This document shows, piece after piece, positions 16,110 to 16,714 of a stretch of DNA of 44,004 nucleotides. Position 1 is the first letter of the stretch, and every line of letters starts with the position of its first letter. The notes beneath the pieces are model-generated. The model was given only the letters and a program-made list of their open reading frames with translations, was not told where the DNA came from and did not search any database. Source of the DNA: Escherichia coli (GTDB lineage Bacteria; Pseudomonadota; Gammaproteobacteria; Enterobacterales; Enterobacteriaceae); NCBI RefSeq assembly GCF_003334765.1, contig NZ_QOWT01000033.1. One strand, written 5' to 3'. The translations under genes and the position numbers were made by a program.

Positions 16110-16130
16110 GCGAATTTTAGTTCACATAGA

Positions 16131-16153
16131 CCCTGCTTCGGCGGGGTTTTTTT
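16131..16153 (+). terminator. rho-independent terminator after narI
   Basis: CCCTGC-TTCG-GCGGGG hairpin followed by a run of seven T. Confidence 0.7.
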
Positions 16154-16292
16154 ATGGGCACGGTGCGGGGTGAGTTGTCGGATGCGCTTCGCTTATCCGA
16201 CCTACAGGGGAGGATATTGTAGGCCCGGTAAACGTGGTGCCATCGGGCAAAATTAGCTCGGAGTAACAGGTTTTGATTATTTAAGGAAGCGA

Positions 16293-16311
16293 TGGTGGTG
16301 GGGGAAGGATT
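16293..16311 (-). repeat. 19-nt duplicate of the tRNA-Tyr 3' end (rtT-type repeat remnant)
   Basis: TGGTGGTGGGGGAAGGATT is identical to the first 19 nt of the tRNA gene at 16471..16555 as written on the plus strand, but is followed by unrelated sequence. Confidence 0.7.
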
Positions 16312-16470
16312 ACTCAGCGCTGCGCGCTTCGCCCTTCGGGTCGTTGCCTGCGGCAACGCTCTCTCGCTGGCGCTCGAGTCGAACCTTGGTCGAAGCTTCT
16401 CATCCTTCCCCGCATGGGCAGAATATTTAATTGCGGATTCGTTGGGAAGTTCAGGGACTTTTGAAAGTGA

Positions 16471-16555
16471 TGGTGGTGGGGGAAGGATTCGAACCTTCGA
16501 AGTCGATGACGGCAGATTTACAGTCTGCTCCCTTTGGCCGCTCGGGAACCCCACC
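16471..16555 (-). tRNA. tyrT: tRNA-Tyr (GUA anticodon), 85 nt including encoded CCA
   Basis: Reverse complement matches the recognised E. coli tRNA-Tyr sequence end to end; upstream region (toward purU) resembles the tyrT promoter. Confidence 0.93.
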
Positions 16556-16714
16556 ACGGGGTAATGCTTTTTACTGGCCTGCTCCCTTATCGGGAAGCGG
16601 GGCGCATCATATCAAATGACGCGCCGCTGTAAAGTGTTACGTTGAGAAAAATGAACTGGTTGCGTAATTTTCATCCGTAACGGATTAAAGGTAACCAGTT
16701 ATTTTTGCTGGCGA

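Follow-up and report, generated by a model that had tools for sequence, protein, structure and literature searches.

The stretch of Escherichia coli DNA analyzed here (44,004 nucleotides, in the following called the window) raises the question how many tRNA-Tyr genes the spacer between narI and purU contains, and how this number came about. In strain K-12, two tandem tRNA-Tyr genes, tyrT and tyrV, are followed by 178-bp repeats that each end in the tRNA 3' terminus; the first-pass annotation had named this arrangement, and the K-12 reference indeed has it, with three repeat units. The same annotation had recognized one complete tRNA-Tyr gene in the window and had judged this state to be consistent with repeat-mediated deletion or expansion and with a change in gene dosage. 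ARAGORN finds exactly one tRNA gene in the 44 kb, a tRNA-Tyr with the anticodon GTA, and Rfam calls a tRNA at the identical position (53.4 bits). Neither program detected a second tRNA in positions 16110..16470, and traces of an inter-tRNA spacer, be it of the 34-nt type or of the K-12 209-nt type, were found nowhere in the window.

The tyrT operon of the window is transcribed toward narI, and the gene order is that of K-12 (Table 1). The 19-mer TGGTGGTGGGGGAAGGATT, which represents the tRNA 3' end in plus-strand reading, is found exactly twice (16293-16311 and 16471-16489), with a start-to-start spacing of 178; including its flanks, the repeat extends over 25 nt. In none of 100 shuffles was such a duplicate matched with two mismatches allowed, and the chance expectation is 0. 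The first-pass annotation had correctly placed the distal copy 159 bp downstream of the tRNA gene, but had taken it for only a 19-nt tRNA end. It is instead the terminus of a full RtT/tpr unit, as the 159 bp and the 19-mer together make up one complete 178-bp unit. The match to the RtT family spans model positions 1-130 of 130 (E = 1.4e-28), and an open reading frame at 16314..16415 covers tpr, which K-12 annotates at the equivalent place in an identical unit. The terminator that the same annotation had expected on the narI side was located as well.

Table 1. Features of the narI-purU interval of the window, ordered by position
Feature	Position	Strand	Basis or remark
narI ORF (nitrate reductase gamma subunit)	15432..16109	+	
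narI intrinsic terminator	16128..16157	+	terminator scan; hairpin 16128-16149, then T run
19-nt copy of the tRNA 3' end	16293..16311	-	closes the repeat unit; AATCCTTCCCCCACCACCA on the transcribed strand
RtT RNA (Rfam RF00391)	16293..16424	-	137.5 bits vs gathering score 45
One complete 178-bp repeat unit, contains RtT RNA	16293..16470	-	Rfam, blastn, alignment to K-12 units
tpr ORF	16314..16403	-	within repeat unit; 29-aa arginine-rich "protamine-like protein" as annotated in K-12
Single tRNA-Tyr(GUA) gene, 85 nt	16471..16555	-	100% identical to K-12 tyrT and tyrV (blastn)
tyrT leader (5' precursor segment, promoter to mature tRNA)	16556..16605	-	equals the sequence upstream of K-12 tyrT
GC-rich discriminator GCGCCCCGC	directly after the tyrT promoter	-	
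tyrT promoter	16606..16633	-	-35 TTTACA, 16-nt spacer with TG, -10 TATGAT; scan, 10/12 matches
purU	16715..17557	-	

Several minor elements lie in the same interval. By eye, a REP-like palindromic element (containing GTCGGATGCGCTTCGCTTATCCGACCTACAGG) is discernible at 16160-16245, between the narI terminator and the RtT unit, and a weak promoter-like match occurs close to it (16243..16216, minus strand). Positions 16000-16135, which comprise the narI 3' end and the terminator and formed the first 135 nt of an 801-nt query, remained unaligned in some phylogroups. On the plus strand, a 90-amino-acid open reading frame (16292..16564) runs antisense through the single repeat unit into the tRNA gene; it is the equivalent of ychS of K-12 (b1228; L001:1210-1485, plus strand), which runs antisense across repeat units 3 and 2. 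A counterpart across such units is absent from the window, and its 90-amino-acid frame looks more like a side effect of the repeats than like a gene.

The K-12 tyrT operon (tyrT-tyrV-rttR/tpr, b1231-b1229) has the same chromosomal position, promoter, leader and tRNA sequence as that of the window. Along the transcript of strain MG1655, tyrT is followed by a 209-bp spacer, tyrV and three 178-bp units, whereas the window possesses one tRNA gene instead of two, lacks the 209-bp spacer and carries one unit instead of three; its locus is 650 bp shorter than that of MG1655. The unit of the window, with RtT and tpr, matches the tyrV-proximal K-12 unit 1 at every position (100% identity), and the sequence past it is that found past the third K-12 unit. 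In K-12, a rho-dependent termination site is located in the part of the repeat region beyond the first unit, and it is absent from the window. The flanks of the single tRNA gene stem from different sides of the K-12 doublet: the 60 nt upstream are identical to the K-12 tyrT leader, which differs from the 34-nt segment preceding tyrV, while the first 58 nt of the window unit, shared with K-12 unit 1, are wholly unlike the K-12 inter-tRNA spacer. Since the tyrT leader is thus retained upstream and the match to unit 1 includes its first 58 nt downstream, the junction lies inside the tRNA repeat.

The K-12 spacer itself (L001:1830-2038) is composed of the 34-nt pre-tyrV segment and, ahead of it, a degenerate 178-bp unit, which shows 87% identity over positions 59-178 and has the same 19-mer at its end. 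PGAP labels this 209-bp spacer as a second RtT sRNA in strains Stbl4 and IAL7252.

We considered whether the window might simply be derived from a K-12 laboratory strain and rejected this possibility. The window and MG1655 are distinguished by 13 scattered SNPs in about 42 kb; the IS5 element that MG1655 carries between ychE and oppA (28428-28431 in the window) is missing from the window, and the sequence diverges from K-12 past position ~42,305 at the end of ompW; the last 1.6 kb, up to position 44004, have no collinear K-12 match.

The most informative comparison is provided by the clone-mates IAL7250 (one tRNA gene and one unit) and IAL7252 (two tRNA genes, the 209-bp spacer and one unit). 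Over about 22 kb of flanking DNA, these two strains are not separated by a single SNP, and they have the ychJ allele and an ISVsa5 insertion in tdk in common; their sole difference is a 294-bp block consisting of one tRNA gene plus the spacer. In comparison with the clone-mate doublet, what is missing from the singlet locus is exactly 294 bp (85 + 209), i.e., one repeat period, with the tRNA left intact. Relatives of the window strain that are about 99.8% identical over 21 kb (Stbl4, NCTC9104, ML35 and others) are likewise longer by exactly 294 bp. As these closest doublet relatives have one unit, a single 294-bp deletion is enough to yield the window allele. The ISVsa5 (IS10-like) insertion in tdk is present in IAL7250, IAL7252 and probably IAL7255 (human faeces, Brazil), the closest public genomes (L011:16561-18516 and L012:16855-18810); tdk of the window (~22,790) is intact.

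The same contraction is found in other lineages. The window differs from IAL7250 by four SNPs in 21 kb and has no IS element in tdk, and it hence represents a third lineage with this layout. Strain OV2, a K-12 supF strain, aligns collinearly and gap-free with the window over 39 kb and has the identical arrangement of one tRNA gene and one unit. However, OV2 has K-12 alleles where SNPs separate K-12 from the window, which the window strain does not, and its tRNA contains the substitutions G35C (amber-suppressor anticodon CUA) and C81A, whereas the tRNA of the window is wild type. We take the OV2 tRNA mutations to be the supF-A81(Ts) suppressor allele. SNPs and IS content tell the window strain, IAL7250 and OV2 apart, and the layout therefore arose repeatedly. 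Moreover, the K-12 laboratory descendants MG1655 (two tRNA genes, three units), Stbl4 (two and one) and OV2 (one and one) differ from each other, so that the locus changes on laboratory time scales. Singlets also occur in unrelated E. coli backgrounds.

Further layouts were encountered among the strains inspected. In addition to MG1655, two tRNA genes are present in strain 1919D62, there combined with two RtT units, and in DAX4 and Stbl4, there combined with one; VE-V10-F has one tRNA gene and two units, and A28 shares the arrangement of one tRNA gene and one unit with the window, IAL7250 and OV2. All of these layouts are register shifts among three direct repeats: the 85-bp tRNA gene, the 178-bp unit and the 19-nt end. 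In many E. coli strains other than K-12, e.g., DAX4 and 1919D62, only the 34-nt segment separates both tRNA genes, and this pre-tyrV spacer is identical in K-12, DAX4 and 1919D62. Two genomes with one tRNA gene and one unit, IAL7250 and HUM3355, are 100% identical to the window over the 393-bp core; the layout is also present in OV2, LH50-c, A28, GF47, GF54, ARS-C301, TW10828, GF161, WP2-W18-CRE-03 and DS566. We thus count at least about 12 named genomes with the exact layout, a lower bound because the 393-nt query also reached 100% coverage on doublets with one unit. In the natural isolates A28, GF47/GF54, LH50-c, ARS-C301 and TW10828, the layout of the window occurs at 98-99% identity. The genomic backgrounds of the natural isolates with this allele differ, IAL7250 having an IS element in tdk that the window lacks.

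We then surveyed 5,426 complete E. coli genomes with junction-specific megablast queries; since this collection is a non-random sample of the species, the resulting figures are frequencies among database genomes. Doublets, recognized by the junction of a tRNA end, the 34-nt spacer and a tRNA start, account for 4,831 genomes (89.0%), and 1,921 of these (35.4% of the collection) possess the K-12-type 209-bp spacer. Because the 34-bp and not the 209-bp spacer separates the tRNA genes in most E. coli, K-12 MG1655 is unrepresentative of the species. Singlets of the window type, in which leader, tRNA gene and RtT unit are collinear, were found in 197 genomes (3.6%); in a further 393 (7.2%), a 7-kb lipid/desaturase gene cluster begins within 16 nt of the single tRNA gene and replaces the RtT array (U12A type). 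The classes add up to 5,421 of the 5,426 genomes and are therefore essentially exhaustive. The singlet count was obtained with query flanks of 65 nt; with a shorter query of 175 nt, doublets reached exactly 80% coverage, owing to the similarity between the tyrT leader and the final 10 nt of the 34-nt spacer. Altogether, about 590 genomes (10.9%, about one in nine) have a single tRNA-Tyr gene at the tyrT locus. The one-copy state is hence a common variant and no peculiarity of the window strain.

Two side observations from this survey concern gene content. In B2-like strains (SE15, L015 1-1500; U12A, L013 and L016, in the latter at 18971-25852), the space between narI and tRNA-Tyr is occupied not by an RtT array but by the cluster of about 7 kb, which consists of seven genes, encoding a KAS-III-like protein, an NAD epimerase/dehydratase, an MBL-fold hydrolase, an F390-synthetase-related protein, a PAP2 phosphatase, a sterol desaturase and a fatty-acid desaturase. 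The cluster stops 16 nt short of the tRNA 3' end, without an annotated integrase. In record NZ_CM176478.1 (strain CKJ_1000_3.1, 4.33 Mb), the sole match in every search was 85 nt long and 97.6% identical; this fits a tyrU-like gene in a genome from which the whole tyrT locus is missing and in which a single tRNA-Tyr gene would be left.

Looking beyond E. coli, we searched one genome per species with the exact 85-nt tRNA sequence and recovered at least 120 loci, mostly from Enterobacterales. When purU-linked loci with enough flanking sequence were tallied and near-identical copies allowed, the matches listed included at least 56 doublets, at least 12 singlets and at least one triplet. Short spacers (≤40 nt) separate the copies at no fewer than 30 loci among the matches listed and long ones (>150 nt) at no fewer than 23, in addition to spacers of intermediate length; spacers of about 33-37 nt lie between tandem copies in many of the genera among these matches. 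The predominance of doublets in the outgroups indicates that the doublet is probably the ancestral state. Contraction and expansion both occur across Enterobacterales. The triplet belongs to Citrobacter sp. MGH106 (L118), which carries beside purU three identical tandem tRNA-Tyr genes with 35-nt spacers and two RtT-like units, and is the expansion counterpart of the singlet. Within E. coli, a synthetic spacer-tRNA-spacer query gave 722 matches, which stem from K-12-type doublets on which overlapping pieces had been joined (140-nt span), and the annotation "tRNA-Tyr (x3)" was not encountered among about 300 sampled matches.

On the strength of these sequence comparisons, we consider it very likely that the window carries a tyrT operon that was contracted, without leaving a scar, by homologous deletion between two identical 85-bp tRNA genes. 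The presence of one intact tRNA gene, of a tyrT flank on one side and a tyrV flank on the other, and the loss of exactly one period form the signature of a homologous exchange between the 85-bp genes. The starting allele would have contained two tandem tRNA genes and one unit (tyrT, the 209-bp spacer, tyrV and one unit, as in the close relatives), and homologous recombination between the identical tRNA genes would have removed one of them together with the spacer (294 bp). The resulting hybrid would bear no scar and would combine the tyrT leader at one flank with the tyrV trailer at the opposite flank. Candidate routes are unequal crossing-over between sister chromosomes (RecA-dependent), single-strand annealing or intramolecular recombination, and replication slippage; the sequence would fit each of them alike, and with two identical tRNA copies the position of the crossover cannot be located. 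A similar register shift between 178-bp units may alter the number of RtT units among strains. The contracted operon comprises the tyrT promoter, the leader, one tRNA-Tyr(GUA) gene and one RtT/tpr unit, ahead of the narI terminator region; the outcome is one tRNA-Tyr gene fewer and just one copy of RtT/tpr, with the intact tyrT promoter in control of the whole. A two-step history that starts from a K-12-like allele with two tRNA genes and three units is equally compatible with the data. Derivation from a DAX4-type allele with a 34-bp spacer was also considered and appears less likely, as the SNPs on the narI side place the window nearer to the K-12-type relatives that are longer by 294 bp. The repeat-mediated deletion proposed by the first-pass annotation is thus strongly supported, with the tyrT leader upstream, the tyrV-proximal unit downstream, a scarless joint and clone-mates that differ by the 294-bp block, and we infer from the comparison with the relatives both the recombinational mechanism and the direction of the change in the window strain.

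Could the single gene instead be an artifact, two tRNA-Tyr genes being really present and the tandem repeat collapsed during assembly, with the loss of one tRNA gene and the spacer? The repeat is a tandem one, IAL7250 and IAL7252 differ at this very block as they would after a one-sided collapse, and the IAL7250 chromosome record is derived from whole-genome shotgun data. However, for this to happen a unique spacer, 34 or 209 bp long, must have been dropped, and neither version has left a trace in the window; the repeated part comprises just 85 bp, which is below current read length. The single-copy state is furthermore present in the 197 and 393 complete genomes of the census, which come from many laboratories, and the layout is shared by at least three separable K-12-like lineages (the window strain, IAL7250 and OV2). 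We therefore regard an assembly collapse of the window locus as unlikely.

Still less probable, in our view, is that the single copy is ancestral in the lineage of the window and that the two-copy alleles of its relatives are expansions through duplication. Unequal exchange does yield gains, as the triplet of Citrobacter sp. MGH106 illustrates, and singlets occur in other species at at least 12 of the 69 purU-linked loci among the matches listed. Yet a conversion of a singlet into a doublet requires the conserved 34-nt pre-tyrV spacer to arise de novo, although this segment is the same in K-12, DAX4 and 1919D62 and has counterparts of about 33-37 nt in many genera; doublets make up 89% of the E. 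coli genomes and 81% of the outgroup loci among the matches listed, and IAL7250 has a nearer relative in the doublet IAL7252 than in the window strain. As a third alternative, an integrase-type enzyme may have acted site-specifically at the tRNA 3' end, with the 19-nt direct repeats as att-like sites; this reading has the least to commend it and strikes us as very improbable. Every unit does end in the 19-nt tRNA 3' terminus, as the att sites of tRNA-targeting elements do, and the foreign 7-kb cluster abuts the tRNA 3' end in B2-like strains. None of the inspected strains, however, has an integrase annotated at the locus, laboratory descendants of K-12 change without a mobile element there, and the ends of the deleted block coincide with the 85-bp tRNA repeats instead of the 19-mers, as the window has retained the initial 58 nt of unit 1 immediately behind the tRNA gene. 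Homologous contraction between the two tRNA genes hence remains the explanation that we favor.

What does the contraction mean for the cell? Three tRNA-Tyr genes are present in E. coli K-12: tyrT and tyrV under the control of the tyrT promoter, and tyrU in another operon (PMC2887954). With tyrU located elsewhere, the window allele lowers the tRNA-Tyr gene dosage from three to two, in line with the dosage change that the first-pass annotation had anticipated; the genome of the nearly identical strain IAL7250 contains two places that match tRNA-Tyr. An effect of the allele on tRNA level or fitness may be surmised from this difference. According to Bosl & Kersten 1991, as cited in PMC3318445, RtT RNA derives from one repeat unit and is processed out of the primary tyrT transcript. 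The RtT unit of the window is co-oriented with and located downstream of the tRNA gene behind an intact promoter, and from this arrangement the release of RtT by processing of the transcript is predicted. The tyrT-tyrV unit is absent from the essential tRNA transcription units listed for strain MG1655(DE3) (PMC11480407), which is only indirect evidence that it is dispensable. The 393 singlet genomes with the 7-kb cluster have one identical junction, which suggests a large clone. Taken together, the absence of the unit from that list and the apparent fixation of singlets in the many genomes with this identical junction speak against a strong cost of the singlet state.

It is conceivable, but we attach little weight to the idea, that the purU-linked tRNA-Tyr array goes beyond a neutral consequence of recombination and is a fast and reversible dosage switch under selection that ranges over one to three tRNA copies and zero to three RtT units. 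Singlets might be favored in some lineages by phage defenses that target tRNA-Tyr, in whose presence the tRNA-Tyr level of the cell may affect how an infection ends, or by a cost of translational redundancy. Rescue in the case of retron-Eco7 depends on the strength of tRNA-Tyr expression (PMC11555353); in an eLife paper about translational redundancy, Tyr goes unmentioned.

For annotation and comparative work, these data imply that the number of tRNA-Tyr genes in E. coli is two or three depending on the strain, with about 11% of the complete genomes at the lower value, and that the number of RtT/tpr units ranges from zero to three across the species. Differences at the tyrT locus are to be expected between otherwise identical isolates, and a check of the sequencing reads is advisable before such a difference is used as a marker.

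The locus, its repeats and the conversion of its doublet into singlets are classical and already known. Russell et al. reportedly observed in 1970 that the tRNA-Tyr doublet gives rise to singlets via unequal recombination, and Egan & Landy are said to have described the 178-bp repeat in 1978, in 3.14 copies. The exact allele of the window is, in addition, already present and correctly annotated in public genomes. Given that the locus and its instability are part of classical knowledge, our finding is an already known one. Strain OV2, an example of the laboratory singlet tRNA-Tyr alleles of the su3+/supF lineage that unequal recombination produced from the doublet, has a layout identical to that of the window. 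Homology-driven gain and loss of tRNA gene dosage is likewise known from the tRNA duplications of Pseudomonas fluorescens SBW25 (PMC7661048, PMC10954465). Those events, however, are large duplications (kb to Mb) selected in the laboratory, whereas the window would have lost a single local tandem period of 119 or 294 bp.
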